Source: Phyllobates terribilis (taxonomy: Eukaryota). From it: a stretch of 64,000 nt of DNA. Shown piece by piece: positions 6,351 to 38,900 of the stretch. A model generated the notes under the pieces. It was given only the letters and a program-made list of their open reading frames with translations, did no database searches and was not told the DNA's origin. The translations under genes and the position numbers were made by a program. The stretch is from contig NW_027362767.1 in NCBI RefSeq assembly GCF_046119375.1, positions 317,068,001-317,132,000 of the forward strand, written 5' to 3'. The number at the start of each line of letters is the position of its first letter. Position 1 is the stretch's first letter.

Positions 6351-6589
6351 GTTCCTCTGTTCCCTGTTGTCTGTGCCTCGTTTCTACTTTAACCTTGTCT
6401 CCCTTTTCCCTCTATGTCTGTTTTCTGCGTCTTTCTGCAGAGTCTGAACTCGCTCCTAAATTCCTTCTCGTCGTCTCTGTACCTCTGTTGTGAATTTAGT
6501 GTACGCTCGCTACTTCTATGTAAGTACTGTGCGTGCTTCTGGTTCTGCCTTTCCTTCTCCGTCTGTTCTTTGTGAACAGAGTCCTATCC

Positions 6590-6900: not shown

Positions 6901-7486
6901 TTGCCGCTCCTGCGGTTTCTGCTCTGCTCTTATCTTGCTTACTGCTTCTGCGGTTTCCGCCCTGCCCTGCTTCTGCCCGCTGCTCCGGCAGTCCTGTCCT
7001 GCCCTGCTTGTGCTCGCTGCTCCTGCTTCCCCGTCCTGCTCTGTTCTTGCCCACCGCTTCGGGCATTCCCTCTCTGCTGTGGTTGTCTACCGCATCTGCG
7101 GTTCTGTGACCCAGTCTGTACTGGGTCTTAACCTCTCTGTGCTCCAGCCCGTCCTTTCGGCCAGTACCTCCCTGCCTGCATACTTGCCTGTATCCACCCA
7201 TCTGCATACCTGCCGTGTTTGCTTACATCCACCAGTCTGTGCCAGCCTAACCTGCCTGTTCCAGTAATCCCAGCATGGGTCAACCCCCGTGTCCGGAGTT
7301 TGACCTGGAGTAGCACCTGGTCCCTCTGCCCAGTTTCTCCCTGGTGCACTGGCGTCGTATGCCGTCGTGCCACCTTGGTCGGATCGGCCAGATACTTAGT
7401 CACGCCCCTCCAGGCACTCTCCGGTCCATGGTCCAGTGGAACCACAACACCCGCACACGCCAGTCAGTCCGGGCGTGTGCATAACA

Positions 7487-7833
7487 AGGTGAGACATGAT
7501 GAATGCCACCTTAGCCCAGTCGGACGTGAACTGGTGTGCCAGGAGTTCAAAGTGCAGCGTGCACTGATTTATGAAGCCCCGACATAGGACAGGGTCACCA
7601 CCAAAACATGGAGGCGTAGAAAACCGGGGTCCAAAGCCGGTGCCACTGAATTGAGGTGCCACCGGAGCGGTTGCCGCTCGGTTAGAGGCGGACACAGTCG
7701 GGGTGGACAGCGCGTCCAAGCGGGAGTTGACTGTCCGCAGATAAGACAGGATAGTATCCTGTTGGGATCTCTGGCGAGAGACCTCTTGGTACAGGTCTGA
7801 GAGCGAAGGAGCCTGGGAGCCACCGGGTTCCAT
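7487..7833 (-). pseudogene. gag of element A, 5' fragment
   Basis: MEPGGSQAPSLSDL...RGFINQCTLHFELL...KVAFIMSHL, cut exactly at the solo-LTR TSD. Confidence 0.9.
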
Positions 7834-7846
7834 GGCCTGTGCAAAC

Positions 7847-8541
7847 TGTTACGGATCCGGGTGGTGGAACCTCTGTGCTGAGATGCAAGAAGGGACCAGA
7901 GGTGCGTAACTAAGTGCCAACTCGGACTGACCCTGGCCACACGACGGCTTAGTCGACTCCGTGAACCAAGGAGGGACCTGGCAGGTGAACCAGGTGCCAC
8001 TCTGGGACTGACCTTCTGTGAGAGCAGGTGACTCCCACGGGTCAGGTGGCAGAGCCTGACAGGTACAGCGGATGAGTACGGCAGGTAGCCTGACAGGTGA
8101 TCCAGGTAGGTAAGTAGGCGGGCACAGCAGGTAACATGACAGGTGATCCGGGTAGGCAAGCTGGTGGGCACGACAGGTAGACAGGCTGGCGGGCGCGGCT
8201 GATAGGCAGGCGGGCACGGCTGATAGACTGGCGGGCACTGGAACCTGAGGGCTGAGGAGAGTGTTAGCACACAAACAACAACCTTGAACAGGCACCTCCA
8301 TTTTGGAGGAGGTGCTTTAAATAGGAGTGGTCCTCCGGCCATTGGCCGGGGACTCTTTAGGACGACGTGCGCGGCCCCTTTAAGAGGGAGGGAGCGCGCG
8401 CGCGCCCTAAGCACAGTACCTGGGAAGCTGCGCGCGGTGCGCGCAACAGCAGCAGGGGACCTGGAGGACGCCAGACCGGGACCGCGGCAGTGAGGGGTTC
8501 GGCGTCTCTGCCCAGCAGGAGGTAGAGACGCCAACACTACA
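7847..8541 (-). repeat. 5' LTR of element A (695 bp)
   Basis: Direct repeat of 1104-1897; CCAAT and TATTTAA boxes on the minus strand; followed by the PBS and gag ATG. Confidence 0.93.
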
Positions 8542-9686: not shown

Positions 9687-10008
9687 GAATCTTGGTGGCT
9701 TGTACTGTCGTGCATGAGTCCTGTCAGTCTTTCAATGACATACCCTGTTAAATCCTGCTCAGGGTTTGACAGTCCATTATACCCTGAGTCATTACAAGAC
9801 CTCAGGTTACGATAGCAAATATTGTCATCCGCAATAGATGCCGAATCCACGATAGACAGACGCATCTAAGGGGTTAATCAGCCCAATCAGTTCCAAAATC
9901 CATTAGGACCGATGCTGCAGAGTGTCAGTCGACATCTCTGTCGGGTAGCGCTGTACACCTTTCCCTCAGCACTGTGATAAAGTAGCACTGAGGAATAAGG
10001 CCGCTTAA

Positions 10009-10488
10009 ATGGAATCTGTCACCCCCTGGCACTCCTCTGACCTCTAATATGGGCATACAGGTGATAGAAATGTGAATCTATACCTACCTGTATGCCTCAT
10101 ATTAGAGGTTTTGTTGCTGTGAAATATCTTTTCATTCCTACAAGTTTCTGATGCTTGCAGGTGACTGGAGGAAATTCCCACCTCCTGTGTGAATTACGTT
10201 TCCCCCCTCCCCTGTATGTCACAGTGCCTGGATTTAGCTGTTGCAACTGCACATCACAGGACACTGTGACATAGAGGGGAGGGGGGAAACATTGTAATTA
10301 CCGCAGGAGGTGGGGATTTCTTCCCATCCCCGGGACTGGAACACATCAGAAACTTGTAGAAATAAAAAGACATTTCACAGCAACAAGACCTCTAATATGA
10401 GGCATACAGGTAGGTATAGATTCACATTTCTATCACCTGTATGCCCATATTAGAGGTCAGATAAGTCCCATGGGGTGACAGACTCCCT
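10009..10488. mobile_element. TTAA-flanked palindromic MITE (T2/Kolobok-like)
   Basis: TTAA on both sides; long inverted arms; same family at 50166-50715. Confidence 0.85.
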
Positions 10489-10565
10489 TTAATGACCACT
10501 GTGAAAAAGGCGTATCAGCTCCATTAAGGGGTCAATGTTTTACTTCCAAGGTATAAAACAATGTA

Positions 10566-11871
10566 CAGGTGCTTCTCACAAAATTAGAATATCATCAAAA
10601 AGTTAATTTATTTCAGTTCTTCAATACAAAAAGTGAAACTCATATTATATAGAGTCATTACAAACAGAGTGATCTATTTCAAGTGTTTATTTCTGTTAAT
10701 GTTGATGATTATGGGTTACAGCCAATGAAAACACAAAAGTCATTATCTCAGTAAATTAGAATAATTAACAAAAAGCACCTGCAAAGGCTTCCATAAGCGC
10801 TTAATAAGGTCCCTTAGTCTGTTTCAGTAGGCTCCACAATCATGGGGAAGACTGCTGACTTGACAGATGTCCAGAAGGCAGCCATTGACACACTCCACAA
10901 GGAGGGTAAGTCATTAAAGGTCATTGCTAAAGAAGCTGGCTGTTCACAGAGTGCTGTATCCAAGCATATTAATGGTAAGTTGAGTGCAAGGAAAAAGTGT
11001 GGTAGAAAAAGGTGCACAAGCAACCGGGATAACTGCAGCCTTGAAAGGATTGTTAAGAAAAGGCCATTCAAAAATTTGGGGAAGATTCACAAGGAGTGGA
11101 CTGCTGCTGGAGTCATTGCTTCAAGAGCCACCACACATAGACTTATCCAGGGCTTCAAGTGTCACATTTCTTGTGTCAAGCCACTCATGACCAATAGACG
11201 ACGCCAGAAGTGTCTTACTTGGGCCAAGAAGAAAAAGATCTGGACTGTTGCTCAGAGGTCCAAGGTGCTGTGTTCTGAGATGAAAGTAAATTTTGCATTT
11301 AATTTGGAAATCAAGGTCCCAGAGTCTGGAGGAAGAGTGGAGAGGCCACAATCCAAGCTGCTTGAGGTCTAGTATGACGTTTCCACAATCAGTGATGGTT
11401 TGGGAAGCCATGTCATCTGCTGGTGTAGGTCCACTGTGTTCCATCAAGACCAAAGTCAGCGAAGCCGTCTACCAGAAAATTTTAGAACACTTCATGCTTC
11501 CCATAACACCTCAGCAGTGCCACAGGCTGATCGCCTCCATGCCATGCCGCATTGATGCAGTAATTGATGCAAAAGGAGCCCCGACCAAGTATTGAGGGCA
11601 TTTACTGAACATACATCTCAGTAGGCCACATTTCGGATTTTAAAAACATTTTTCAAGCTTTTGTTATAAAGTATTCTAATTTACTGAGATAATGACTTTT
11701 GTGTTTTCATTGTCTGTAAGCTATAATCATCAACATTAACAGAAATAAACACTTGAAATAGATCACTCTGTTTGTAATGACTTTATATAATATATGAGTT
11801 TCACTTTTTGTACTGAAGAACTGAAATAAATTAACTTTTTGATGATATTCTAATTTTGTTAGAAGCAACTG
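10566..11871 (+). mobile_element. Tc1/mariner transposon, internally deleted
   Basis: TA TSD; ~200+ bp TIRs starting CAGGTG; transposase remnant MGKTADLT...(HTH)...VMVWEAMSSAG...KGAPTKY* lacking the second D/E region. Confidence 0.92.
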
Positions 11872-12788
11872 TACATTGGTCAAAGACCTGTCTTGTAATA
11901 AACAAAATGCAAGTGTGTGCCCATGAACTTGACAAATTTGTATTAGTCCTAATAAATTGCTAAAAGCAGAGATCTTGAAATTGTAAAGAATTGATACAGA
12001 ACATAAATTGTAAAATTGTTTAACTTAATTATAAAATGAATAACATATATTTGCTGAAAGTGATATACACCTTATAAGGACCTGACAGCTGACTCATGCT
12101 GCCAGAACCAAAGGCAGCATGAATCAGAGTTACTCAGGCGTAAATGTGTAAATGTATGTTTCCATTGAACAACACAGTATCTCAGAGTAAAACATCTCTC
12201 GCTGAAATGATAAAGCCAGTGTCTGATCCATCTTCTCCATGGTTCAGACGGCATGTATAAGCCTTCATGTTCCCTATAAGTAAAAACCCATTAATAAAGC
12301 ATCAATTTTGACATGATTTTGTAAAAACTACAGCCCAAACAGTGACATGAGTTCGATGTGTGCGTAAGTTTTAATATTGTGATGACAGTTGCTTTCCTTT
12401 AAGTAGGAAAATAATGATGTACATTATATAGACAGAAGTACCGTATATCACATCCGATTCTAAATCCATAGACATTAACATGAAGTTGGTCTCCCTGTTA
12501 GGCCCCCTTCACACGTCTGGATATTTCCGGTACTGGAAAAACCAGTACCGGAGATATCCGTGTCCCGTATCAGGATCACACGTACCAGCACTTGGGAATC
12601 AGCATTACAGTTCGCGCTGTTCCCAAGCACCGGGTACTGAGCGCTGCCCTCATCATTGTCCCCTGCTTGCACTGCGATCAGTGCCAGCAGAGGACAATGT
12701 CGAGAGTAGTATTCTGCTCCCTCTGTGTTCTGGTGTAAAAATAAGAATAAAATAAAAAAATTCTTATACTCACCTGTCCCTTGCTGTA

Positions 12789-13845
12789 TGTAGTGCCGGC
12801 GTCCCTGCCCTCTGCTAGGCAGGGACGCTGTTCCCCTCACCGCTCTGCTCCGTGCCCGGCGTCCCTCTCCCGCTCTGCTGGCAGCACGCGCTCCTTCCCG
12901 GCCACTGTGCTTAGGGCGCGCGCGCGCGCTCTCCCTCCCTCTTAAAGGGGCCGCGCGCGCCGTCCTAAGGAGTCCCCGGCCAATGGCCGGAGGACTTTAC
13001 CATATATAAGGCACCTCCTCCAAAATGGAGGTGCCCGAGCAATGTTGTTTGCACCTGTGTCTCACCTGTGCTTCAGCCCTCAGGTCCCGTTGCCAGTTAC
13101 CTGCCAGTTACCTGCCAGATTCCTGCCTGATTACTTGCTACCTGCCTGCTAGTCTGAGGTCCGACGGTCTGCCTTACTAATCCTGTCAGTCTGTCTAAGG
13201 ACCAGCCTGCCCGCTCACCTGGGAGCGCACATCAGCTACTTGCCTGTGGTCCGACGGTCTGCCTTCCAACTCCTGTCAGTCTGTCTATGGACCAGCTTGC
13301 CCGCTCACCTGGGAGCGCACATCTGCTACCTGCCTGCTAGCCTACCTGGAGGCTCCGTCGTCACGTGCTGTGACCACCTGTCTATCCAGTGACTCCTGCC
13401 CGCTCACCTGGGAGCGCTCATCTGCTACCTGTCTGCTTGCCTACCCGGAGGCTCTGCCGTCACGTGCTGTGACCACCCGCCTGTCCAGAGACTTCTGCCC
13501 GCTCACCTGGGAGCGCTCATCTGTCGCCTGTCCGCTGGTCTTCCTGGAGGCTCCGCCGTCACATGCTGTGACCACCCGTTCATCCAGAGACTCTCGCCTG
13601 CTCACCTGGGAGCTCACGTCTATCTTCAGCCGCCACAGGTCGTACCAACCCTATACCTAGAGACTGCCCCGGTCACTTGCCGTGACCTCCAGCCCGTTCA
13701 CTCAGAGACTGTCCCGTTCACTCAGAGACTGTCCCGTTCACCTGCTGAGACTTCCAGCCCGTCTTCCCTGGTCGCCACCCGCTCCCTTACAAGGACCGCC
13801 CCCTTGTATAGAAGCTCAGAGGTTCCGCCTCCCAGACCCGTTACA
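12789..13845 (+). repeat. 5' LTR of element B (1057 bp)
   Basis: Direct repeat of 18060-19124; CCAAT 12980-12984; TATATAA 13003-13009. Confidence 0.96.
12980..13042 (+). promoter_or_regulatory. LTR core promoter (CCAAT, TATA, predicted TSS ~13033)
   Basis: CCAAT and TATA seen directly. TSS inferred from the 30-nt spacing and from complementarity to the PBS. Confidence 0.7.
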
Positions 13846-13847
13846 GT

Positions 13848-13857
13848 TTGCTCGGGC
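13848..13857 (+). promoter_or_regulatory. Self-priming PBS of element B
   Basis: TTGCTCGGGC, 2 nt after the LTR, is the exact reverse complement of GCCCGAGCAA (13033-13042). No TGG-type tRNA PBS. Confidence 0.8.
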
Positions 13858-13858
13858 C

Positions 13859-14809
13859 ATGGAACCCGGTGGCACCCAAGCTCCCTCGCTCTCGGACCTG
13901 TGTCATGAACTGTCCCGTCAAAGGTCCCAACAGGAGTCCATTCTGGGTCACCTGCGGAATGTCAATACTCGCCTGGACACTCTGACTGCTCCACCAGCAA
14001 CCTCCGCCAGTGCCATGTCTCGCAATCCGGCAGCTCCACTGCCCACTAATACCATGGTATCTTACCCCGGACCCCGGCTTTCTGCACCTCCTCGCTTCGG
14101 AGGCGACTCCGCCCAGGCTCGGGGCTTCATAAATCAGTGCACCCTGCACTTTGAACTATTATCTCACCAGTTTAACTCCGACCGGGCCAAAATTGCATTC
14201 ATCATGTCCCATCTCACCGGGGAGGCCCTGGCCTGGCTAAATCCTCTATGGGAGAGAGGAGACCCCCTGGTATCCAACTTGCCTGCTTTTCTCACGGCTT
14301 TCCGGAAAGTCTTCGACGAACCCGGACGGAAGACCTCATCCGCATCATCTCTGCTACGCCTCCGTCAGGAAAGTCTCACCGTGGGCCAATATGCCATACG
14401 GTTCCGTACCCTTGCCTCGGAGCTGGCCTGGGATAACGACGCTCTGGTTTCCGTCTTCTGGGAGGGTCTGTCCGGCCGTATTAAAGATGAGCTTGCCGGT
14501 CGGGACATTCCTACCACTCTCGATGATTTAATAACTCTTGCCACCCGGATTGACCTACGGTTCCAGGAGCGTGCCAGAGAGGTCACCCGTGAGAGGAGAT
14601 TGCCACGTCTAGCTCCTACTTTTCAGAAACCCGTCACTCCTTCTGTCTCTTACCAGGTACACTCTCCTGAGCCTATGCAGGTCGACCAGACCAAGATGGT
14701 CAAGACCCGTCAGGACTTACGCTGTGCCGAGGGGACCTGCTTCTACTGTGGCAGTAAGGAGCACCGGATCCGTGCCTGCCCGGAGAGGTCGGGAAACGCC
14801 TGTGTCTAG
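13859..14809 (+). CDS. gag: Gag (316 aa), sushi/PEG10-like capsid plus CCHC knuckle
   Basis: gccATGG start; PPRFGGD..RGFINQCTLHF; CFYCGSKEHRIRAC. Confidence 0.93.
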   Translation: MEPGGTQAPSLSDLCHELSRQRSQQESILGHLRNVNTRLDTLTAPPATSASAMSRNPAAPLPTNTMVSYPGPRLSAPPRFGGDSAQARGFINQCTLHFELLSHQFNSDRAKIAFIMSHLTGEALAWLNPLWERGDPLVSNLPAFLTAFRKVFDEPGRKTSSASSLLRLRQESLTVGQYAIRFRTLASELAWDNDALVSVFWEGLSGRIKDELAGRDIPTTLDDLITLATRIDLRFQERAREVTRERRLPRLAPTFQKPVTPSVSYQVHSPEPMQVDQTKMVKTRQDLRCAEGTCFYCGSKEHRIRACPERSGNACV

Positions 14810-14852
14810 GTTCGCTCAGAGAGGTCCACCTAGACAAGAATAAATCCTCTCC
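14791..14852 (+). promoter_or_regulatory. -1 ribosomal frameshift signal (G GGA AAC plus H-type pseudoknot)
   Basis: Heptamer in the correct gag phase; 5-nt spacer; stem TGTCTAGGT/ACCTAGACA; loop GAGAGG pairs with CCTCTC at 14846-14851. Confidence 0.8.
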
Positions 14853-17800
14853 ATCCCTGCTGTTGTCAGTTTCAATCGTCTATGGGGAGAACCGTTATTT
14901 CGAACTAGCCCAACTTGACTCTGGAGCAGCCGGGAATCTTATCTCACAGTCCCTGGTAGAGAAATACCGCATCCCCACCAAACCTCTGGCTGTACCCTTG
15001 TCTGTTGCTGCCGTGGATGGGGGGCTCTTACCACGCCCCATCCAACTCATCACCGAATCCATTACTCTGCAGGTGGGAATGCTGCATTCTGAAAGTATCT
15101 CCTTCCATGTTCTGCCTGGACTCTCTCACGCCCTCCTGCTAGGTCTACCTTGGCTCCAGAGACATGCACCCGTTCTTGACTGGCAGACCGGTGAAGTCCT
15201 TCGCTGGGGACAGGGCTGCCATAAGACCTGTCTGGTTCCCGTCCATCCCGTCCGTCCTTCTCCTACCCCAGCTAATCTACCTGGACTTCCGATCCCTTAT
15301 TGGTCTTATGCTGATGTCTTTAATAAAAAGGAAGCAGAGACACTACCCCCTCATAGACCATACGACTGCCCTATCGACTTGTTACCTGGTACTTCTCCTC
15401 CCCGTGGGCGTATTTATCCATTATCCGCTGCTGAGACCCGCTCGATGTCCGAATATATTGAGGAGAATCTGGCCAGGGGATTCATCCGGAAAACTACCTC
15501 CCCGGCGGGAGCAGGCTTCTTTTTCGTCAAAAAGAAGGACGGCTCTCTCCGTCCCTGTATAGACTATAGAGGCCTTAACCAGATCACGGTGAAGAATAAG
15601 TACCCCCTTCCGCTCATTCCGGAGTTATTTGATCGTCTGAAGGGGGCTAGAATCTTCACCAAACTAGACCTCCGTGGGGCGTACAACCTGGTTCGTATCC
15701 GTCAGGGGGATGAATGGAAGACGGCATTCAACACCCGGGACGGCCACTATGAATATCTGGTAATGCCCTTTGGCCTCTGTAACGCTCCTGCCGTCTTTCA
15801 AGAGTTGGTCAATGACATCTTCCGGGACCTTCTCTACTCCTGCGTAGTGGTGTACCTGGACGACATCTTGGTCTTCTCTCCGGATCTCCAGACTCACCGG
15901 AGGGACGTTCGTCAAGTCCTGCTCAGGCTCAGGCAGAACCATCTCTACGCTAAATATGAGAAGTGCCTCTTTGAGCAGACCTCGCTTCCGTTTCTGGGCT
16001 ACATTATCTCTCAGACCGGCCTACAAATGGATCCTGAGAAACTGTCTGCCATCGAGAAATGGCCCCGACCGGAGGGGTTGAAGGCCATTCAGCGATTCCT
16101 GGGCTTCGCCAACTACTACCGCCTCTTCATACCACACTTCTCTTCCCGGACTGCCCCAATTTCCGCGCTCACCCGTAAGGGTACTAATCCCAAAGAGTGG
16201 CCGCCCGAAGCAGAGGAGGCCTTTCTTTCCCTAAAACAGGCCTTCTCTTCCGCCCCGGTGCTGCATCGCCCGGACGGCAACAAGCAGTTCTTCCTGGAAG
16301 TTGACGCCTCCTCCTCTGGAGCCGGAGCGGTACTTACTCAAAAATCATCTTCCGGGAGAATGGTAACTTGTGGCTTCTTCTCCAAACTCTTCTCCTCTTC
16401 TGAGCGCAACTATTCCATAGGAGACCGAGAGTTATTGGCCATCAAGCTGGCGTTGGAGGAGTGGCGTTACCTACTCGAGGGGGCTCTTCATCCGGTAATA
16501 ATTTACACTGACCACAAGAACTTGGCTTACCTCCAGCATGCCCAGAGACTTAACCCGCGTCAAGCCCGGTGGTCCTTGTTTTTTGCTCGCTTTGATTTTG
16601 TTCTTCATTTTCGCCCGGCTGACAAAAACGTCAAAGCAGACGCCTTGTCCCGATCCTTTCTGGTGTCCGATCTCGAGGAAGAACCTAAACATATCATCGA
16701 TCCCGCCAGAGTAATGCAGGTGGCTCCCGTGAGTCTAAATCGTCTCCCTCCCGGTAAGACGTTTGTTTCAGTACCTGATCGGGAGAAGATCCTACACTGG
16801 GGCCATTCGTCTAAGCTAGCTGGCCACGCCGGTCAGAAAAAGACCCTCCAGCTTATTGCCCGGCACTATTGGTGGCCTACCCTGCACAAGGACGTAATAG
16901 ACTTTGTTTCTGCCTGTGTGTCCTGCGCCCGCAACAAAGTCCCGAGACATCTGCCAGCCGGACGCCTCCTTCCGCTTCCTGTGCCTGCTGCCCCCTGGCA
17001 GCATATTGCTATGGACTTCATAACTGATCTCCCCGTCTCTGTCGGTTGTACGGTCATTTGGGTGGTCGCTGACCGCTTTTCCAAGATGGCTCACTTTATT
17101 CCCCTGCCAGGCCTCCCGTCTGCACCCGAGCTGGCTAAAGACTTTAACCGCCATATCTTCCGTCTTCATGGCCTGCCCCTCCACATCGTGTCGGATCGTG
17201 GGGTACAGTTCACCTCACGTTTCTGGAGAGCCACTTGTAAACTACTAGACGTCACCCTGGACTTCTCCTCCGCTTACCACCCACAGTCCAATGGTCAAGT
17301 GGAGCGGATCAATCAGAACCTGACCAGTTACCTCCGGCACTTCGTTAATGCCCACCATTCTGACTGGGTGGATCTCCTACCATGGGCCGAGTTCTCTTAT
17401 AATAATCACGAGAGCGAATCCTCCTCCAAATCCCCGTTTTTTGTAGTTTTCGGTCAGCATCCTCGGATTCCTTTTCCTGTCTCCACCTCTGTGGACAACC
17501 CGGCTGCGGAATCTCTCGTTAGCAAATTTTCCTCCATATGGGAGAGTACCCGGTCCGCACTCCTTCTGTCATCCGAGCGTATGAAAAGACACGCTGACAA
17601 AAAACGCCTGGATCCTCCACAATTTCGTCCAGGAGATAAGGTCTGGCTCTCATCTAAATATGTTCGACTCAAGATACCTTCTTACAAGTTAGGGCCTCGG
17701 TTCATCGGTCCTCTGGAGGTCATCAGTCAGATCAACCCGGTGGCCTATAAATTGAAACTCCCGGCTAACTTACGGATCCCTAACTCCTTCCATGTATCTC

Positions 17801-18216
17801 TCCTCAAACCCGTGGTGCTTAACTCTTTTTCCAAGTCTACAGGTACGCCTCCTGCTCCGGTTTCCGCTGAGGACGAGTTTGAGGTAGAGAACATTCTTGC
17901 TACCAAAAGGGTAAGAGGAAAGACCTTTTTTCTAGTAGATTGGAAGGGGTTTGGTCCTGAGGAGAGAACGTGGGAGCCCCGGGAGAACATCCATGCCCCT
18001 CTCATCCTTGCTAAATTTCTGTCTGGCCTAAAAAAGGGGGGGCCTAAAGGGGGGGGTACTGTAGTGCCGGCGTCCCTGCCCTCTGCTAGGCAGGGACGCT
18101 GTTCCCCTCACCGCTCTGCTCCGTGCCCGGCGTCCCTCTCCCGCTCTGCTGGCAGCGCGCGCTCCTTCCCGGCCACTGTGCTTAGGGTGCGCGCGCGCGT
18201 TCTCCCTCCCTCTTAA
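14791..18216 (+). CDS. pol: Pol (protease-RT-RNase H-integrase-chromodomain), probably made as Gag-Pol by -1 frameshift
   Basis: Frame open from 14758, in -1 relative to gag. LDSGAAGN, VYLDDIL, EVDAS, H..H/C..C, MDFITDL, SDRGVQF, QVERINQ, GPRFIGP, chromodomain FEVENIL..VDWKGF..TWEP. Confidence 0.94.
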   Translation, partial: GKRLCLGSLREVHLDKNKSSPSLLLSVSIVYGENRYFELAQLDSGAAGNLISQSLVEKYRIPTKPLAVPLSVAAVDGGLLPRPIQLITESITLQVGMLHSESISFHVLPGLSHALLLGLPWLQRHAPVLDWQTGEVLRWGQGCHKTCLVPVHPVRPSPTPANLPGLPIPYWSYADVFNKKEAETLPPHRPYDCPIDLLPGTSPPRGRIYPLSAAETRSMSEYIEENLARGFIRKTTSPAGAGFFFVKKKDGSLRPCIDYRGLNQITVKNKYPLPLIPELFDRLKGARIFTKLDLRGAYNLVRIRQGDEWKTAFNTRDGHYEYLVMPFGLCNAPAVFQELVNDIFRDLLYSCVVVYLDDILVFSPDLQTHRRDVRQVLLRLRQNHLYAKYEKCLFEQTSLPFLGYIISQTGLQMDPEKLSAIEKWPRPEGLKAIQRFLGFANYYRLFIPHFSSRTAPISALTRKGTNPKEWPPEAEEAFLSLKQAFSSAPVLHRPDGNKQFFLEVDASSSGAGAVLTQKSSSGRMVTCGFFSKLFSSSERNYSIGDRELLAIKLALEEWRYLLEGALHPVIIYTDHKNLAYLQHAQRLNPRQARWSLFFARFDFVLHFRPADKNVKADALSRSFLVSDLEEEPKHIIDPARVMQVAPVSLNRLPPGKTFVSVPDREKILHWGHSSKLAGHAGQKKTLQLIARHYWWPTLHKDVIDFVSACVSCARNKVPRHLPAGRLLPLPVPAAPWQHIAMDFITDLPVSVGCTVIWVVADRFSKMAHFIPLPGLPSAPELAKDFNRHIFRLHGLPLHIVSDRGVQFTSRFWRATCKLLDVTLDFSSAYHPQSNGQVERINQNLTSYLRHFVNAHHSDWVDLLPWAEFSYNNHESESSSKSPFFVVFGQHPRIPFPVSTSVDNPAAESLVSKFSSIWESTRSALLLSSERMKRHADKKRLDPPQFRPGDKVWLSSKYVRLKIPSYKLGPRFIGPLEVISQINPVAYKLKLPANLRIPNSFHVSLLKPVVLNSFSKSTGTPPAPVSAEDEFEVENILATKRVRGKTFFLVDWKGFGPEERTWEPRENIHAPLILAKFLSGLKKGGPKGGGTVVPASLPSARQGRCSPHRSAPCPASLSRSAGSARSFPATVLRVRARVLPPS

Positions 18217-19124
18217 AGGGGCCGCGCGCGCCGTCCTAAGGAGTCCCCGGCCAATGGCCGGAGGACTTTACCATATATAAGGCACCTCCTCCAAAATGGA
18301 GGTGCCCGAGCAATGTTGTTTGCACCTGTGTCTCACCTGTGCTTCAGCCCTCAGGTCCCGTTGCCAGTTACCTGCCAGTTACCTGCCAGATTCCTGCCTG
18401 ATTACTTGCTACCTGCCTGCTAGTCTGAGGTCCGACGGTCTGCCTTACTAATCCTGTCAGTCTGTCTAAGGACCAGCCTGCCCGCTCACCTGGGAGCGCA
18501 CATCAGCTACCTGCCTGCTTGCCTGTGGTCCGACGGTCTGCCTTCCAACTCCTGTCAGTCTGTCTATGGACCAGCTTGCCTGCTCACCTGGGAGCGCACA
18601 TCTGCTACCTGCCTGCTAGCCTACCTGGAGGCTCCGTCGTCACGTGCTGTGACCACCTGTCTGTCCAGTGACTCCTGCCCGCTCACCTGGGAGCGCTCAT
18701 CTGCTACCTGTCTGCTTGCCTACCCGGAGGCTCTGCCGTCACGTGCTGTGACCACCCGCCTGTCCAGAGACTTCTGCCCGCTCACCTGGGAGCGCTCATC
18801 TGTCGCCTGTCCGCTGGTCTTCCTGGAGGCTCCGCCGTCACATGCTGTGACCACCCGTTCATCCAGAGACTCTCGCCTGCTCACCTGGGAGCTCATGTCT
18901 ATCTTCAGCCGCCACAGGTCGTACCAACCCTATACCTAGAGACTGCCCCGGTCACTTGCCGTGACCTCCAGCCCGTTCACTCAGAGACTGTCCCGTTCAC
19001 TCAGAGACTGTCCCGTTCACCTGCTGAGACTTCCAGCCCGTCTTCCCTGGTCGCCACCCGCTCCCTTACAAGGACCGCCCCCTTGTATAGTAGCTCAGAG
19101 GTTCCGCCTCCCAGACCCGTTACA
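18060..19124 (+). repeat. 3' LTR of element B (1065 bp)
   Basis: Direct repeat of 12789-13845; preceded by the PPT. Confidence 0.96.
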
Positions 19125-21331
19125 CTGTAATCCATCTGATCGCTCATGCTGAGGAGCCAGGGAGAATGACTCACTCCAGCGAGTGGTGTCCTGTCACTCA
19201 CCAAGCAAGCACAGAGCAGGGGCCCGCTTGCTGCAGGAGTCATTCTCCCAGACTCCTCTGCGTGAGCGGTCAGGTGGATTACAGCGGGGGACACCTTCAG
19301 ACAGGTGAGTATAAGGATTTTTTTATTATAATCTTATTTTTACACCAGGACACAGCAGAATACTACTCTCAACATTGTCCCTTGATTGTGCTGATCACAG
19401 TGCCGGTAGGGGACAATGATGTCAGATGCCTGCAGCACCCGGGACTTGGGAACAGCGCTAACTCTATCGCTGATTTCCAGACTCCAGTATGATGAGACAG
19501 GGATGTCACCCATGTGTCATCAGTGTGAACGTGTACAGGAACTTTTGGGCCCAAGCTGAGAGAAAAAAAACAGACATGTCAGCGTGTTTTGCCCACGGAC
19601 ACACAGTCCGTGGAAACACACCAACATGTGCACAGACCCATTCATTTGAATGGATCCACGCGTGTCAGTGTCTTCAGTACGTGTGGAAATGGAAACCACA
19701 CATACTCAAAACATTGACGACTGAAAGAGCCCTTAAATAAATAAAATAAATTGCAGCTAAAACAGCTCCCAACCACAATCCCAGTTGTTGTGCACAACTC
19801 ATCTGCTTTGACCATTCACCAGGGTTGGACTGGGACAAGTCTATGCAGCCCACCACCACCTACATGGGTGTCTCTATTAATAATAATAATTTTTATTTAT
19901 ATAGCACCAACATATTCCGCAGCACTTTACAATTAAGCGGGGACATGTACAAACAATAAATTCAATACAAGGTGAGACAGTTTAAACAGTTACATCAGGA
20001 GTGAGGTCCCTGCTCGCAAGCTTACATTCTACAATGAAATGGGGGGACACAATAGGTGGAAAGTGCTTGTTATTTCAGGTCTGGCAATCATAATAAGTCG
20101 GGATTATCATATAAAGCTGTATGATCCAGTCATCAGCCTGTATGTTCAAGTGCAATACTCAATTACCAAGTGCAGTTAGAGACAGATGAACAGTAGGGAG
20201 CAGATTCTGAATAGTATTTAGGAGGGAAAAGGGGAAAGTTAGTTTACTGGGTATTTGAGGTGGTAGGCTTGTTTAAAGAGATGGGTTTTTAAAGCGCGCA
20301 TCAATCGGATCGTCTGGGGTAGAGCATTCCAGAGAACTGGCGCAGCACGAGAGAAGTCTTGGAGACGGAGGTGCGAGGTTCGGATTATGGGGGATGTTAG
20401 TCTTAGGTCATTTGTGAAATGGAGGGCACGTGTAGGACGATAGACTGAGATGAGAGAGGAGATATAAGGTGGTGCAGAACTGTGGAGAGCTTTGTGGGTG
20501 AGAGCAATGAGTTTATATTGGACCCTGTAGCGAATGGGTAACCAGTGTAATGACTGGCACAAGGTGGAGGCATCGGTGAAGCGGCTGGACAGAAATACGA
20601 CCCTGGCTGCCGCATTCAGGACAGATTGGACAGGGGAAATTTTGGTAAGAGGGAGACCGATCAGAAGAGAGTTGCAGTAGTCCAGACGAGAGTGAATAAG
20701 AGCAACAGTAAGCGTTTTAGCAGTTTCAAAAGTGAAAAAAGATCAGATTCTGGAGATGTTTTTAAGATGCAGGTGACAAGAGCGAGTGAGTGATCGGATA
20801 CACGGAGTAAAGGAAAGGTTAGTGTTGAATATGACCCCAAGGCAGTGGGCGTGCTGCTTGGGAGTTATGGTTGAACCCTCCAAGGTAATTTCGATGTTAG
20901 GTAGAGTTAGGTTAGTAGAGGGGGGAAACACAAGAAGTTCAGTTTTGGAGAGATTCAGTTTAAGATAGAGGGAGGACATGATGTTAGACACAGCAGACAG
21001 ACAATCCTTGGTATTTTGTATTAGGGTAGGGTGATGTCAGGGGAAGAAGTGTATAATTGGGTGTCGTCAGCATAGAGATGATACTGGAACCCAAATCTGC
21101 TGATTGTTTGTCCAATAGGGGCAGTGTATAGAGAGAAGAGGAGGGGGCCTAGGACTAAGCCCTGCGGAACCCCGATAGTAAGGGGATGAGGAGGGGAAGA
21201 GGAGCTGGCAAAAGATACAGTGAAGGAACGGTCAGAGAGGTAGGAGGAGAACCAGGAGAGAACGGTTTCCTTGAGGCCTATAGAGCGGAGCATAGTGAGG
21301 AGGAGCTGGTGATCCACAGTGTCAAATGCTG

Positions 21332-21878
21332 ATACAATTCATGGAAAAGGTAGTACAATACACCCAAACTGGGTTTTATATGTGTGTAGCAATTTTTGTT
21401 ACATTTAAAGCTACCAAAATACGGACAATAAAGGCTAAATCGCAAGCATCAACAAAATTACAAGCAAAAGAGAAAAGAAATGATCATAAAGCCTATAGTT
21501 TCATATATAAAGTATCAAAATTTATTAGAAATCATACAAAAGACAGACATAGGGGGGAGTGTAGAAATAGCTACTGTGAACCAAATAGATCCAGCTACAC
21601 GCAATACAGCATAATAATCATTTTATATAGAGTAATTACAGATTTGTGCAGGAACATATATTATATTCCAGTATTAAGTGCCAGAGTCACAATATCATCA
21701 GGTGCCCCTAAATAATAAGTCCCACTGCCAGATAGTAATATAATAATATACATACCAATGAGACACACAGTATCCAGTAAGGGCAGAAGGACCGGGCAAC
21801 AGAGAGGAAGGCAACAGGCTATACGCGAGAAGCAGCAGCCCCGACGCGCGTTTCGGTTAACCCTTCATCAGGGGGCGT
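21332..21878 (-). mobile_element. Non-coding Penelope-like (pLTR) or retrozyme-like insert, 547 bp
   Basis: Lies between two identical 138-bp copies of L2 sequence; hammerhead motif at its minus-strand 5' end; AATAAA (minus) at 21521-21526. Confidence 0.65.
21838..21876 (-). ncRNA. Minimal type I hammerhead ribozyme
   Basis: GCCCC CUGAUGA AGGGUUAACC GAAA CGCGC GUC^ GGGGC: full conserved core, 5-bp helix I, palindromic helix III (ACGCGCGU), GUC cleavage triplet. Confidence 0.75.
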
Positions 21879-22245
21879 GGGAAGAGGAGCTGGCAAAAGA
21901 TACAGTGAAGGAACGGTCAGAGAGGTAGGAGGAGAACCAGGAGAGAACGGTTTCCTTGAGGCCTATAGAGCGGAGCATAGTGAGGAGGAGCTGGTGATCC
22001 ACAGTGTCAAATGCTGCAGAGAGATCCAGGTTAGAAATATAACCCTGCCTGACGTTGGAGGAAATCGAGATTCAATGGAGACTAATGGTACTGATAATAC
22101 AAATATATAAGGTTAAATAATACCCCCACATAGTGACAGAATGCCACCATACTGATCATTACCAAACACAAATGTACCAAAACCAATATTACCATCAATA
22201 CTGCAATATAAGAGACAAATAATACTGTCAGACCATAACAACATA

Positions 22246-24371
22246 CCATACTGTGTAAAGGATTTAAGGCAGGTGTGGGGAAAATATAAAGCAAAGAAAG
22301 CATGCTTTAAAAAAATAGGAAGTATTAATAGTTTGGATTTTGTTAATTGATAAAAATAAAGTGAATGAACAAAAGAAATATCGGAATCAAATCAATATTT
22401 CATGTGACCACCCTTTGCCTTGAAAACAACAGCAATTCTAGGTACATTTGCACAAAAATTTGGACGGAACTTGGCACAGAGGTTGTTCCAAACATCTTGG
22501 AGAACTAACCACAGATCTTCTGTCTCTTCATGTATTCTCAGACAGACTTGATGTTGAGATGAGAGGTCTGTGGTGACCATATCATCACTTCCAGGACTCC
22601 TTGTTCTTTACCCTGAAGTTAGTTATTAATGACACTGACTATGTTTGGGGGTGTTGTCCTGCCGCGGAATAAATTTGGAGCTAATCAGATGCCTCCCTGA
22701 TGTTATAACATGATGGACAAGTATCTCCTTGTATTTCTAAGAACTGAGGATTCCATTAATTCTGAACAAATCCAAAATTCCGCTTGCTGAAATGCAGCCA
22801 CAAACTTGCAAGGACCCTCCACCATGCTTCACTGTTACCTATGTTTTCCTGCATAGTTGAGTCACTTGGTCTTGTTTCTACATCAAAGATATGGTATTTG
22901 GCCACAATTCTTTAATGGACAACTTCGGCCAAACTTCTCCTAGCAGTGAATGGGTGTAGCTGGGTCCCACTGGTTGTGCCAGTTCTGCACTGATGGTAGT
23001 GCTAAACTCCTTCCAGTTTTGAAGGGAAGCATGACATGTATTTTATCTGCTACACTGTTTCCTTGGCAGACCACTTAGTCTATGGTTCTCAACGTTGCCC
23101 ATTTCTTAGCATCCTCAATTCTGAGAAATACAGGCAGATGCTTATCGTCATGTAATACCATTAGGGCAGGGTTTCATTGGCTCCAAATTTATTCTGCAGC
23201 GGGACAATTAACCCAACCATACAGTCAATGTCATTAAAGTGAACCTGTCATCAGGATTGTGCTAAGTAAACTACAGGCAGTGTCAGGTTGGCGCCGTTAC
23301 ACTGATTAAAATGATACCTGGGTTGATTAAATCTGTCCCATGGTTATTGTTTACTGTAATCTTTATTTGCAGTTTGGAGATAATTAAATTCTGGTGCTCC
23401 GGGGCGGCCTGTGTGCGGGGCTTTGTTTGGTGCTCTATTCTCATATTCATCATTGTGGCTTAAATGACAGGTCACTGATCCTTCAGTGAGCAGCCTTCTA
23501 TTTTAAATACTGCTCTTGCGCAGTTCATATTATTGACTTTGAAAATAAAAATGTAACTCTAGCCCACGCATGTGCAGTAGCAGCCATCACTTGCTGATAG
23601 ATGCTACTGCACACGCGCAGCGGCCATTTTGCTGGAGCAAAAAAAAAATTGCCTCCAGCAAAATGGTCGCGGCGCATGCACAGTAGCATCTATCGGCAAA
23701 CAATAGCTGCTACTGAGCAAGCACCATTTTGCTAGTTACATTTTTTTCCCAAAGACTACAATATTAACTGTGGAAGAGCAGTATTTAAAATAGGAGGCAG
23801 CTCACTGACATTGTGCACGCTATTAAGAATGAATATTCAGTGCGCCCCATGCCCATGGGGAGCACTGAATATTAATTTTCTTTTAACAACGGGAACAGTG
23901 TTAGCTGCAGCAGGCGGCTCCTGACTCCTGTGCCCCCCTCCTCCGCTGCCCCACCACCACCCACAAAATTTGAGGAAAAAAGTGCATCTTATAGTCTGAA
24001 AAATATGGTATATGGCCCCACAGAGCCCTGATCGCAACATCATCAAGTCTGTCTGGGATTACATGAAGAGACAGAAGGATTTGCACAAGCGACATCCACA
24101 AATCTGTGGTTAGTTCTCCAAGATGTTTGGAACAACCACCCTGCTGACTTCTTTCAAAAACTGTGTACGAATGTATCTAGAAGAACTAATGCTGTTTTGA
24201 AGGCAAAGGGCGGTCACACCAAATATTGATTTAGATTTCTCTTTTGTTCATTCATTTTGCATTTTGATAATTGATAAAAAATAAACTACTAACACTTCTA
24301 TTTTTGAAAGCATTCTTTATTTAGCAGCATTTTTTTTTTACACACACGTCTAAAACTTTTACACAGTACTG
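22246..24371. mobile_element. Tc1-derived element made of two inverted 3' halves, with MITE fragments inside
   Basis: TA on both sides. Minus-strand transposase remnant ~22390-23100 and plus-strand remnant ~23110-23237 plus ~24010-24230, both ending KGGH(M/T)KY*. Confidence 0.7.
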
Positions 24372-32399: not shown

Positions 32400-32960
32400 T
32401 CCTGTGTGTGAAGAGCTCCATAGGAATAATGGCCGGGGCCACGCAGAAGCCGGCGGCTATCAGCTCCCAGTACACGAGCTCCGCGGTGACAGACATTCCC
32501 GCGTCTCCCCAGCACCGGCGCCGGCACACACGATCCCCTGACAACAGCTGGCGCTTTGCGGACCGCGGTCACATGACACGGCGCCGCCATTTTGTCTTGT
32601 GAGTGAAGTGAGGTAAAAAGAGAGAAGGGAGAGAAACCGGAAAGGAAGAGGGAGGCAGCCAGTCACACAGAGCGGAGCGGGCACGGACTGCTGCCTGTCA
32701 CCACCAGCTGTCAGGGAAGCCTCCGAGCAGGGTGACCCGGGAGCACGTAGCTGGAGGAGCCGGCGGTGACACATCCTGTATCCGTAGGCCCGGCCGGGAG
32801 TCAGCGCGGACAATGTCGGGGCAGTCCATCACCGACCGGATCACGGCGGCCCAGCACAGCGTCACCGGCTCGGCCCTGGCCAAAGCCGTGTGTAAGGCGA
32901 CCACCCATGAGGTGATGGGGCCCAAGAAGAAGCACCTGGACTGTGAGTGAGAAGAGCACG
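32400..32960 (+). promoter_or_regulatory. CpG-island promoter and first exon of the PICALM-family gene
   Basis: High GC and CpG density upstream of the ATG; GTCACATGAC (32568-32577) and GCCGCCATTTT (32583-32593). Confidence 0.75.
32813..32942 (+). CDS. picalml: exon 1 CDS (130 nt) MSGQSITD...KKKHLD
   Basis: ATG 32813; donor GTGAGT at 32943. Confidence 0.96.
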
Positions 32961-35900
32961 GGAGGGGAGATGGCTGCCACTGATACATATGTGTGTATGT
33001 ACAATATACACCTGTGTGTACAGATAATGCATCTATACACTGACCTGTGTGTACAATATACACCTGTGTGTACAGATAATGCATCTATACACTGACCTGT
33101 GTGTACAATATACACCTGTGTGTACAGATAATGCATCTATACACTGACCTGTGTGTACAATATACACCTGTGTGTACAGATAATGCATCTATACACTGAC
33201 CTGTGTGTACAATATACACCTGTGTGTACAGATAATGCATCTATACACTGACCTGTGTGTACAGATAATGCATCTATACACTGACCTGTGTGTACAATAT
33301 ACACCTGTGTGTACAGATAATGCATCTATACACTGACCTGTATGTACAATATACACCTGTGTGTACAGATAATGCATCTATACACTGACCTGTGTGTACA
33401 ATATACACCTGTGTGTACAGATAATGCATCTATACACTGACCTGTGTGTACAGATAATGCATCTATACACTGACCTGTGTGTACAATATACACCTGTGTG
33501 TACAGATAATGCATCTATACACTGACCTGTGTGTACAGATAATGCATCTATACACTGACCTGTGTGTACAGATAATGCATCTATACACTGACCTGTGTGT
33601 ACAATATACACCTGTGTGTACAGATAATGCATCTATACACTGACCTGTGTGCACAATATACACCTGTGTGTACAGATAATGCATCTATACACTGACCTGT
33701 GTGTACAATATACACCTGTGTGTACAGATAATGCATCTATACACTGACCTGTGTGTACAGATAATGCATCTATACACTGACCTGTGTGTACAATATACAC
33801 CTGTGTGTACAGATAATGCATCTATACACTGACCTGTGTGTACAGATAATGCATCTATACACTGACCTGTGTGTACAATATACACCTGTGTGTACAGATA
33901 ATGCATCTATACACTGACCTGTGTGTACAATATACACCTGTGTGTACAGATAATGCATCTATACACTGACCTGTGTGTACAATATACACCTGTGTGTACA
34001 GATAATGCATCTATACACTGACCTGTGTGTACAATATACACCTGTGTGTACAGATAATGCATCTATACACTGACTTGTGTGTACAATATACACCTGTGTG
34101 TACAGATAATGCATCTATACACTGACCTGTGTACAATATACACCTGTGTGTACAGATAATGCATCTATACACTGACCTGTGTGTACAATATACACCTGTG
34201 TGTACAGATAATGCATCTATACACTGACCTGTGTGTACAATATACACCTGTGTGTACAGATAATGCATCTATACACTGACCTGTGTGTACAATATACACC
34301 TGTGTGTACAGATAATGCATCTATACACTGACTTGTGTGTACAATATACACCTGTGTGTACAGATAATGCATCTATACACTGACTTGTGTGTATATGTAT
34401 TGTGTATACCTCAGTGGGAACATATTGCATTTAATGTATACATTGAGGTGTGTATGTATTTATATGTACCATATATCTATCCTGTGTATACATATAATGC
34501 ATGTATACACTGACTTGACGTGTGTGTATATATATATATAGATATATATATATATATATGTACCATATATATATCCGTGTGTACATTGACGCGTGTAAAA
34601 TATGTTTCAACGTACACACTGTATATACTTGTGCACATGTATGACCTGTATACTCAGTGTGTGCTACACTGTACATGTCCTGTCCGTACCAGTTGTATAT
34701 AAAGATAGTGCTGTATACTCATGTATATCCTTACCTGTGTATATTATGCATACAGTAATATCTATATAATGTGTACCGGTATGTGCCCCTACCTGTGTAT
34801 GGAGATATATATATCAGTGTACATATACACCTGTTCTCTGCATGTACTCACTATTTATACCGTCTATATACTCTCATGTGCCCCTGTCTGTATATATCTC
34901 ACACACACATCACAGGTGATATACACCTAATCTATAGCTAATAATAGTCGTGTCCTGTAGACTTACATTCTGTGGCTTATCACCATGCCCGTATGATATA
35001 TACATAGTATGTGATCTGTACAACCCTTATCCAATATACTGTGTATATAATATTTATTAGTGGATATATAATGTTGATGCTGATTTGATAGTAACCTATA
35101 TATCACGCATAGATGACAATAAATGTAGGTGATAATTACATTCTCCAGAAGCCGATTCCAAGAGATTAGCAGCCTGGGTGAATACCACCCAACCCCTGTG
35201 ATTTGTCAACCAGTCCTACTGTGTATACAGGGCATGCTATTACCTGTGTATATGGTGTGAACAGTAATATACCTACATAATGTATACACTATGGAAAAAC
35301 TGACAAACCTGGCCACTATGGTGATTTAAAGGGATTATCAAACTTTCTTCAAAACAGCTGCAAATGGTATCAATGAGTCTGCAGTGATGGTCCGCCGGTC
35401 CTGCCAGCTTGTGACCGCTGCAGCAATATAATGACTCCGTGTTCATCACGTGACCGCTGAGGCCACCGGCTGTGCACAAGCAGCCGGCGCGTGACCGCTG
35501 AGGCCACCGGCTGTGCACAAGCAGCCGGCGCGTGACCGCTGAGGCCACCGGCTGTGCACAAGCAGCCGGCGCGTGACCGCTGAGGCCACCGGCTGTGCAC
35601 AAGCAGCCGGCGCGTGACCGCTGAGGCCACCGGCTGTGCACAAGCAGCCGGAGCGTGACCGTTGAGGCCACCGGCTGTGTAGAAGCTGATAACACTTCGA
35701 CCACATCAACCAGATACTGGGCGGAGCGCTGGAGCGTGTGTCATCTTTACATAGTGATGGAGCACTAACATTTCTTTTTTGCAGCCATTTTTACAAAAAA
35801 AAGAAAAAGTGAAGTTGTGCGATCCCTTTACAATATGGCCAGATGTCTGTGGTCTGCATCTGGGTGTCACTGGCCTGTATTGGCAGAGACTAGACAATAG

Positions 35901-38900
35901 TGGTAGATAATCGCGTATCGATGTCCCGTTTTTCTAGCGTTAGATTATCTGTGGCGGATGATGAAACAAAGCATCAGGCTACAAGCATCAATCAGGGAAA
36001 AGTGCTGACGTAGAGCCTCCTAATACAGGGTGCATCATGGAAGCTAGGACGTATCGCTCCAGGGCAATGCTTGTAGGGAGACTGGTGATGGATGGGCACT
36101 GGTGTGCACGGCTAAAGATGATGACCAAAAAGTGTGACTTGGCCCCTTCATTTTTCATTGTAAGTGTGTAATGCTTTTCTTATTTTATAACCTGTAGTGT
36201 AGATGAGGCTACAGGGGGCTGTGCAATGATTATGGGTTATAGATGAGCCTACAGGGGGCTGTGCAATGATTATGGGTTATAGATGAGCCTACAGGGGGCT
36301 GTGCAATGATTATGGGTTATAGATGAGCCTACAGGGGGCTGTGCAATGATTATGGGTTATTGATGAGGCTACAGGGGGCTGTGCAATGATTATGGGTTAT
36401 AGATGGGTAGGGGGCATGAGACATGCAGTGGTACGCACATTGGATACACAGTAGAAGGTAAGGAGCCAGGTACATGATCATTTTGTGTTGTCACTTCTGT
36501 CTTGCAGATAGATATGAATATTAGTGTATAAAGTTTTGTCTATAGCAGTGGCATCCAGATCATAGTTTTGGTGTTCCAGTGAACAGATCCCAATCATCAT
36601 GCCACTGTTCTGGCAAGTTGGAGGGCACAGACTACAGTATTTAAGTTACTTCTGTTCTCTACTGTACAAGGACAACAGGACCACAGAGGAGCGATGTATG
36701 GTGTATTTTCACATTGAATGTTTTTTCCAACTAATATTTTTTTGCTTCTGGTCTCTTGTAAACTTGGCAGCGGAATATTTTTATCATTTTAAAAGGAAAT
36801 GCTGGAATTTTTTTTACAAAAATACACAGCCGCAAATATACCACATGTGAGTAAAGATACAGGTGCATCTCTCTAAATTAGAATATCATCAAAAAGTTAA
36901 TTTATTTCAATTCTTCAATACAAAAAGGGAAACTCATATATTATATAGAGTCATTACAAACAGTGATCTATTTCAAGTGTTTATTTCTGTTAATGTTGAT
37001 GATTATGGCTTACAGCCAATGAAAACACAATGACATTTCCATTTCCAAAAAGCTTGTCAGCAGAGGGAAGCATGAAGTGCTGTAAAATTTCCTGGTAGAT
37101 GGCTGCACTGACTTTGGTCTTGATGAAACACAGTGGACCTACACCAGCAGATGACATGGCTCCCCAAACCATCACTGATTGTGGAAACTTCACACTAGAC
37201 CTCAAGCAGCTTGGATTGTGGCCTCTCCACTCTTCCTCCAGACTCTGGGACCTTGATTTCCAAACGAAAATTGGAACTCTGGGACCTTGTGGAGTGTGTC
37301 AATGACAGCCTTCTGGACATCTGTCAAGTCCGCAGTCTTCCCCATGATTATGGAGCCTACTGAAAGAGACTAAGGGACTTTTTTTAAATGCTTAGGAAGC
37401 CTTTGCAGGTGTTTTTTGTTGATTATTATAATTTACTGAGATAATGACTTTTGTGTTTTCACTGGCTGTAAGCCATAATCATCAACATTAACAGAAATAA
37501 ACACTTGGAATAGATCACTCTGTTTGTAATGACTCTATATAATATGAGTTTCACTTTTTGTATTGAAGAACTGAAATAAATTAACTTTTTGATGATATTC
37601 TAATTTAGTGAGATGTACCTGTATTTTCTGAAGGAATCTTTGTAGTTTGCCAAAATTATTTAAAGGCTTTTTCAAGACTGGATAACTAGTTATGACCCAT
37701 TCTCATTTTGGGCTTCACTTAGGCACTGTTGTGCACATTTTCTAGTGGTGATTACTGATATTGCAGCCTATTTCCATGCACTTTCATGGGGCTTGCCAGT
37801 CAAACCGGGCACAGCGGCTACTGAAGGCACTAAGCCCAGCCTGGCAAACAATCAGGAGAATGAGGCGTTCACTGAAGTTCCACTGCCCCTTTATTTGGCT
37901 GATTGGGGAGGTGCCAGGAATAGGACCCCCACTGACCTCCTATTAGTGGCCTATTCTAACGATAGTTCATTAGTATTGCTGTCCCACTACACCTTTTAAT
38001 GTAATCCTATTAGAACTGTAGGAGAATAGGCTTATTAACATGGTCCTACATAATCCTAGTTCCTGCATTATGTAATAAAGACGTTTTGATCCAGCATTCA
38101 AAATTAGTACTGAAAAGCCATGGGGCAGTGATGGCTTTCTCCAGAAGAGTGATGCTGGCCGGTCCCTAAAAGTGCCCTTTGTGACTTGACTGACAGCCCT
38201 CTGGCCAGGATACGTCATCACAAGCCAGCTACGGAGCATTTGCACTGGAGTGGGATGTACTGGACTCTGCTTCATCTGTACAGGGATGCCACAGGAGCTA
38301 GTAGTGTGTGATGATGTGTCCTGGCCTGAGCCTGTGCTGGTCAGTGAGGTGCAGTCTGACAACCTTCTGTTAAGAGGATAACTGGATTCTTGTATGAAGA
38401 AATAGTTTATATGCTTTATGGGATTTTTGAGTACTCACCCCCAATATTTTTAATGATTTATGATGTTTGAGTTTTAATTTTACGCACTGTTCTGCATCAT
38501 ACAATGTTTTTTTTCTTAAATCATTTTGCTCAGATTGTACAGTGAAAGCTGGAGCTACATGGCGATTTTTGTCAGAGACACGGATCACTCGGCCACAGAT
38601 CACTTTATTGCCGATTTTATGGAGGTGAATGTACTCACATTGCAGCTCCCAAGAGACTACAAGCAAGAAGCAAGACATCTATGGTTCCAAATTTTTGTGA
38701 CTTGCTTGTCAGTACTTTTGCTGGTGGCATTGTGTCCCCATTCACCTGCATTAATCTGTAATGTAGAGCAATCTTTGCCTGCGTGACTTGTCGTGGTCAA
38801 ATTTGCTATGTAGCCTGAGACTAAAGATGACATGTGATTAATAATTGTGGTGTAGATTGTGTGCTCATATTGAGATATCATGAGATGATACTGCGGATTG

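Follow-up and report, generated by a model that had tools for sequence, protein, structure and literature searches.

A solo pseudo-LTR with a hammerhead motif, probably left by a Neptune-type Penelope-like element, in the genome of Phyllobates terribilis

Inside a decayed LINE in the genome of Phyllobates terribilis lies a short non-coding insert that opens with a hammerhead ribozyme motif. What kind of element left it, and from which RNA was it copied? The window, that is the whole stretch of DNA analysed here, comprises 64,000 nucleotides of contig NW_027362767.1. A first-pass annotation had named a Penelope pseudo-LTR (pLTR) and a retrozyme-like unit as candidates and had leaned towards a non-autonomous ribozyme element. 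We put at roughly 0.88 the probability that the insert is a solo pLTR of an autonomous, Neptune-type Penelope-like element (PLE), whose own reverse transcriptase (RT) started in the 5' UTR and copied an uncleaved transcript to +1.

The insert and its hammerhead motif

The insert runs exactly from 21878 to 21332 (547 nt) and, as first noticed, lies inside a LINE, here in an RT fragment for which Pfam reports RVT_1 with an E-value of 1e-15. The host LINE family is abundant (2357 candidates, the best 98% identical). The first-pass annotation had overlooked that a direct duplication of 138 bp of LINE sequence, 100% identical between its two copies, flanks the insert. The features of this region are:

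20100..22030, minus strand: host LINE with RVT_1, 5'-truncated at 22030, carrying stops and frameshifts; 3' limit provisional
21879..22016, minus strand: 138-bp target duplication, upstream copy (100% identity to the downstream copy)
21332..21878, minus strand: probable solo pseudo-LTR (+1..+547) of an autonomous Neptune-type PLE, by pLTR identity
21194..21331, minus strand: 138-bp target duplication, downstream copy (100% identity to the upstream copy)
21838..21876, minus strand: minimal type I hammerhead; cleavage predicted at the 21843/21842 bond
21844..21851, minus strand: palindromic 8-mer that makes up helix III with loop 3, predicted dimer interface (duplex and cofold)

The motif reads on the minus strand from 21876 as originally described, with helix I, CUGAUGA, GAAA and GUC all in place. 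Positions follow the usual hammerhead numbering. Helix I comprises 5 bp (21876-21872 paired with 21842-21838) and is followed by CUGAUGA, a single unpaired A, a 2-bp helix II and GAAA; the 3' half consists of a 2-bp helix III capped by GCGC, then GUC. The window motif contains all parts of the core, CUGANGA, GAAA and NUH with the ends closed by helix I, as well as the minimal features of the PLE type, namely an unpaired base after position 9, a G10.1-C11.1 pair and a palindromic helix III/loop 3. Pairing and cofold agree with the earlier classification, which was minimal type I with a palindrome in helix III: the 8-mer duplex has a predicted energy of -13.3 kcal/mol and pairs intermolecularly in the cofold. 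Monomer MFE folding did not return the active hammerhead fold, as expected from helices of only 2 bp.

The motif occurs once in the window, against 0.005 per window in 200 block shuffles. Rfam model RF00163 (Hammerhead_1) matches 21837-21877 with 24.2 bits (E 0.002), below its gathering score of 34, and a scan of the whole window at the gathering threshold returned no match. A looser hammerhead pattern has 1,399 matches in the genome and its reversed control 0, so ribozymes of this class are common here; in the first 100 of these matches, inspected by eye, helix II varies with its pairing mostly kept and loop 3 is mostly GCGC. Over 11 subfamily representatives the ribozyme has a mean identity of 95%, compared with 73% and 79% in the sequence on either side. 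In this family the core normally reads CUGACGA, with 35 exact 36-mers genome-wide; the CUGAUGA form of the window copy has 2 and probably arose from it by CpG decay. The hammerhead motif at 21876-21838 is thus real, and it is likely to be self-cutting. The window copy itself is likely inert, since it carries no TATA box, ORF or second ribozyme.

The window holds several other repeats. A young full-length LTR element, which we take to be Ty3/Gypsy-like from its motifs, occupies 12789-19150 (plus strand); its terminal repeats lie 5271 bp apart and are 99% identical, and it has a gag-like frame (13661-14809) and an uninterrupted pol-like frame of 1152 aa (14758-18216). A second LTR element at ~1100-8400, on the opposite strand and 75-79% identical to the first, has repeats ~6.7 kb apart that are 91-92% identical and contains tandem arrays of 48- and 75-nt units. 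A minisatellite of mixed 52-, 33- and 19-nt units (~30 copies) spans 32873-34517, and MITE-like elements with long terminal inverted repeats lie at 10005-10492, at 51939-52691 and at 10564-11878 with 36854-37627. Just upstream of the host LINE, 22392-22700 (minus strand) is a decayed transposase fragment, presumably Tc1-like by its motif.

The element family and its encoded protein

Searching the frog's own genome (10.6 Gb) with the insert yielded 317 candidates, the best 40 of which contain 46 matches. Many of these form same-strand pairs 4.4-4.5 kb apart, with one ORF between the two members. The window copy is 97.6-98.5% identical to the pLTRs flanking the RT/GIY-YIG ORF, and the nearest pLTR compared differs from it at 8 positions. 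The Penelope pLTR option of the first-pass annotation is therefore the one that we retain, and the autonomous RT-GIY-YIG partner that it had suggested seeking does exist, with an intact ORF of 1020 aa. The tandem copies that it had also proposed did not turn up: no short head-to-tail units (~550 bp) occur among the 46, 35 and 98 matches listed, and same-strand copies lie ~4.5 kb apart. This spacing, together with the ~98% identity to pLTRs of ORF-bearing elements, argues against a non-autonomous or retrozyme-like element.

The insert's PLE family is small, with copies numbering in the dozens in this genome. A downstream pattern gave 98 matches, 30 of them within one array. These 30 identical pattern matches (G000:C9:322.1-329.8 Mb, L190), many of them ~95 kb apart, represent a single insertion that was multiplied within a large segmental array of tandem units. 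Elsewhere, three insertions (L095, C1:1040.3; L194, C13:45.9; L176, C1:103.0) arose independently at nearly one site in one host repeat, which hints at a target preference. Contigs from four sequencing runs span parts of the insert; they contain no joints and are not counted as evidence. Other PLE families of this genome (L211, L212 and L213) share the ribozyme scaffold and differ in helix II; their units measure 4.5-4.9 kb, and two of the three have open frames of 1048-1060 aa.

The ORF between the pLTRs encodes ~1020 aa and is uninterrupted in at least two independent loci. Its Pfam matches fall below the cut-off (RVT_1, E 0.004; GIY-YIG, E 0.035, residues 908-946), and a second ORF copy gave no Pfam match. 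Residue numbers for Pfam, alignment and model are one short, as the likely Met (L033:2948) was not part of the query, whose first codon is the next one. Several homologues carry PF01541. Across 97 aligned proteins a Tyr, a second Tyr and a His of the GIY-YIG region are invariant, as are two Cys of the linker, which reads CxxCxxCxxC in this ORF and lies between RT and endonuclease (EN). An AlphaFold model built on the same 97-protein alignment has a pLDDT of 88.5. The top 10 Foldseek matches of the model in the PDB are all telomerase RT (TERT), and a PDB search with the ORF sequence gave unrelated weak matches only.

The closest named proteins come from frogs, with 54-62% identity. We provisionally assign the element to the Neptune type by its zinc-linker motif and host group, an assignment to be read with the fact that Nematis has the same linker: in its account of PLE clades, PMC8557442 gives the CX2-5CxxC linker to both. 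The clades that the relevant part of a preprint reports for vertebrates are Neptune and Poseidon only (bioRxiv 10.64898/2026.07.22.740005). The genomic organisation, with a single ORF between pLTRs in partial tandems plus inverted 5' copies, is that of EN-bearing PLEs. In the features examined, the element behaves like PLEs that encode an endonuclease and carry a minimal hammerhead in their pLTRs (PMC4209133).

Target duplications, element ends and a proposed integration route

We tabulated 60 insertion events by hand, merging segmental duplicates; 14/60 could not be scored and were set aside. Among inverted copies, 11/12 scorable cases show target-site duplications (TSDs) of 12-15 bp. The 34 scorable single-orientation copies divide into 12 with short TSDs (six of these being weak 9-11-nt matches), 18 with none and 4 with long ones. 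Short TSDs are thus found in 11/12 inverted versus 12/34 single-orientation copies (Fisher p 0.002, short versus other). The long TSDs measure 62, 102, 138 and ~875 bp and are restricted to single-orientation copies (4/34, against 0/12 inverted). The last may not be a clean TSD, because the flank duplication shows ~12 differences, common to both segmental duplicates, and its pLTR pair only 2. Three other ribozyme families provided no example of a long TSD, their three scorable direct copies having 13 bp, 13 bp and none; that check covered 20 stretches, mostly too diverged from the reference to bound, and left three inverted and three direct copies scorable. In the openly available literature listings and passages searched, no PLE target duplication above 50 bp is reported.

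Did PLE integration produce the 138-bp duplication? It might instead stem from template switching by the LINE RT, from later repair or from mis-assembly, for the LINE 5' end lies only 14 nt past the duplication and the usual TSD of the family is 12-15 bp. Other LINE copies contain the 138-bp stretch once, and the two copies here have two CpG-type changes in common that are found in 0/19 and 2/19 other LINE copies. Since both copies carry the same rare decay-type changes, what was duplicated was genomic DNA rather than LINE RNA, copied once the LINE had aged, as a TSD predicts. The duplication also meets both insert ends to the base, the 3' end being the PLE's own end site, and two other insertions have abutting duplications of 62 bp (100%) and 102 bp (99%). 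We therefore consider an origin outside PLE integration improbable.

The 5' ends bear on the RNA that served as template:

21865..21878, minus strand: insert 5' end at the putative transcription start (+1); the TATA box (-30) is not carried here

With +1 defined from the window copy, 23/75 5' ends fall at +1..+14 and 1/75 at -14..0 (binomial p 7e-7); the searches favour copies with an intact ribozyme and have no bias for ends just inside versus just outside +1. A TATA-like box lies at -30/-31 in 11/11 subfamily representatives, substituted in one and with a spacer of varying length; it is clear in 2/3 other ribozyme families. Such a spacing between TATA box and start is a general expectation. 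We infer that +1 is the transcription start because the 5' ends cluster ~30 nt below a conserved TATA box and stop abruptly on the upstream side. PLEs do not as a rule have a TATA promoter, as the one described for D. virilis Penelope is internal and without TATA (PMC2377424).

The first-pass annotation had seen ~33 nt upstream of the cleavage site and concluded that they fit a tandem or circular template. Upstream bases are indeed retained, to a length of 36 nt, and with 5' ends piling at +1..+14, 30 nt below the TATA box, they point to an uncleaved primary transcript rather than a circle as template. A non-autonomous, retrozyme-like element spreading as tandem or circular RNA would account for a non-coding, AT-rich insert with a type I hammerhead, and one preprint traces animal retrozymes back to pLTRs (10.64898/2026.07.22.740005). 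At the cut site lie two of the 75 5' ends, +37 (C2:489.7 and C5:212.9, the latter with 2-nt microhomology), a weak hint of a cleavage footprint, so cut RNA may occasionally be copied; a third candidate, C1:847.98, was rejected, as alignment puts its start near +55. Against this, a circular template should leave permuted copies in which 3' sequence precedes the ribozyme, and instead the host duplication abuts +1; no short head-to-tail units are found among the matches listed, and the insert has its ~98% identity to pLTRs of ORF-bearing elements. We rejected a tandem or circular template on the ~4.5-kb spacing of matches and the sharp boundary of 5' ends at +1, and membership among non-LTR retrozymes because there is no tandem array of at least two short units and the family has an ORF. 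A retrozyme-like origin is accordingly very unlikely.

Equally unlikely is a solo pLTR formed, like retroviral solo LTRs, when both pLTRs of a full element recombine with each other: there are full elements whose two pLTRs are near-identical, and recombination or deletion is suggested for some rotifer solo pLTRs in PMC3846280, but the upstream repeats of full elements begin at scattered points (-19 to -3578), so recombination predicts scattered solo 5' ends, and the solos begin at +1..+14 instead.

A solo pLTR copied from uncleaved RNA thus remains our preferred reading, and the 3' ends bear on where copying started:

21332..21340, minus strand: main family 3'-end site (~+548), putative internal RT start, 25/40; the insert ends here
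21452..21460, minus strand: alternative family 3'-end site (~+424), 15/40
21750..21755, minus strand: predicted splice donor of a 5'-UTR intron (+124), invariant in 7/7 pLTR-ORF junctions aligned

Of 40 classed single-orientation copies, 15 end at ~+424 and 25 at ~+548, sites that lie ~124 nt apart. Inverted copies combine one +424 end with one +548 end in 11/12 classed cases (p 0.002), one site being used per arm; the spacing of ~124 nt compares with a tail of 30-40 nt in EN-bearing PLEs. The three other ribozyme families have two end sites ~130 nt apart, too, and all 3/3 of their scorable inverted copies show mixed ends with 13-15-bp TSDs. The head-to-head junctions (L010, L017, L023) often lie inside the ribozyme and several sit at the helix II palindrome, suggesting that this palindrome provides microhomology for joining two cDNAs. 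Splice sites were predicted from the consensus for donors and acceptors. The predicted donor and an acceptor predicted at +577 in full elements, past the 3' end of the window copy, bracket both 3'-end sites in 7/7 junctions, splicing itself being a prediction; some families of EN-bearing PLEs retain a spliceosomal intron.

We propose the following route. Pol II would initiate at +1 from the pLTR promoter. As a monomer the hammerhead would rarely act, and cutting would require a dimer or protein assistance, so that uncut RNA would be the usual template. The element protein would nick both target strands ~12-15 nt apart, and cDNA would be primed at ~+424 or ~+548; an RT start at the first internal site would yield the solo pLTR of +1..+547. 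Priming from both target ends would produce a head-to-head copy flanked by a short, clean duplication; when a single end primes, as for the window copy, host repair would finish the 5' junction, with a duplication that is short, absent or long. For a lizard Poseidon, PMC11167929 shows that RT starts at two internal sites, that both strands are extended and that the template is mainly uncleaved RNA.

A broader joint reading, which we hold only tentatively and consider rather doubtful as a whole, would extend this to two-ended target-primed reverse transcription by frog Neptune elements, with one-ended failures leaving host-repair duplications of 60-900 bp. A protein dimer would make a break staggered by 12-15 nt, and its ends would be primed at two RNA sites ~124 nt apart, both inside the 5'-UTR intron. 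Only unspliced, uncut RNA could therefore be copied, a simple answer to intron retention in PLEs. Where the second priming fails, host repair would duplicate 60-900 bp of target. If true, PLEs would give rise to small tandem duplications.

As a locus, the insert is ordinary, because the ribozyme-bearing pLTR is already established; the 138-bp duplication is the only thing unusual about it. The value of its sister copies is that they record a poorly understood integration mechanism: they mark the likely transcription start and uncut RNA as the likely main template, the inverted ones pair both end sites, and long duplications occur in single-orientation copies only in this sample. With an intact 1020-aa ORF and near-identical pLTRs, the element can be tested in vitro like the Anolis element.

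Comparison with known systems

Like the metazoan PLE pLTR hammerheads of Cervera and De la Pena 2014 (PMC4209133), the motif is type I with a 5-bp helix I, an unpaired base after A9, a G10.1-C11.1 pair and a palindromic loop 3. Those hammerheads, too, are mostly single genomic copies, ~9,000 in X. tropicalis compared with 1,399 matches to one pattern here. Their Schistosoma examples have a helix II of 7-8 bp; here it has 2 bp, with its loop inside a second 8-nt palindrome.

The non-LTR retrozymes, including newt satellite 2 (PMC7229834; 10.64898/2026.07.22.740005), resemble the insert in their type I hammerhead and short, AT-rich, non-coding, pLTR-related unit. They are tandems of at least two ribozyme units, whereas the insert is a single unit from an ORF-bearing family.

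Long TSDs are known from other elements: PMC9977147 cites a median of 900 bp for Dualen and 126 bp for R9, and L1 in NER-deficient cells also leaves long flanking duplications (PMC5223499), comparable to the 60-900-bp duplications here. In these cases a distant second nick is the explanation given (PMC9977147, PMC5223499). Unlike them, the present element is a PLE, and a minority of its copies is affected (4/34 scorable direct, 0/12 inverted). Rotifer PLEs have TSDs of 8-10 bp (PMC3846280), in contrast to the long ones here.

The element shares with Neptune (Craig et al. 2021, PMC8557442) the partial tandems forming pLTRs, the head-to-head inverted 5' copies and the order of RT, CX2-5CxxC linker and C-terminal GIY-YIG; a putative tail, too, is confined to one end. 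The Neptune tail is 30-40 nt long; here it would be ~124 nt if the distance between end sites is taken as the tail, and, as a further difference, both end sites precede the likely start codon and fall within a predicted intron. As in the Anolis Poseidon PAc (Frangieh et al. 2024, PMC11167929), two fixed genomic 3' ends would mark internal RT starts, the template would be uncleaved RNA and both target strands would be extended. The PAc ribozyme extends over the start codon, with RT starting within the ORF; in the frog element, by contrast, the ribozyme sits at the putative 5' tip of the transcript, ~560 nt ahead of the ATG.
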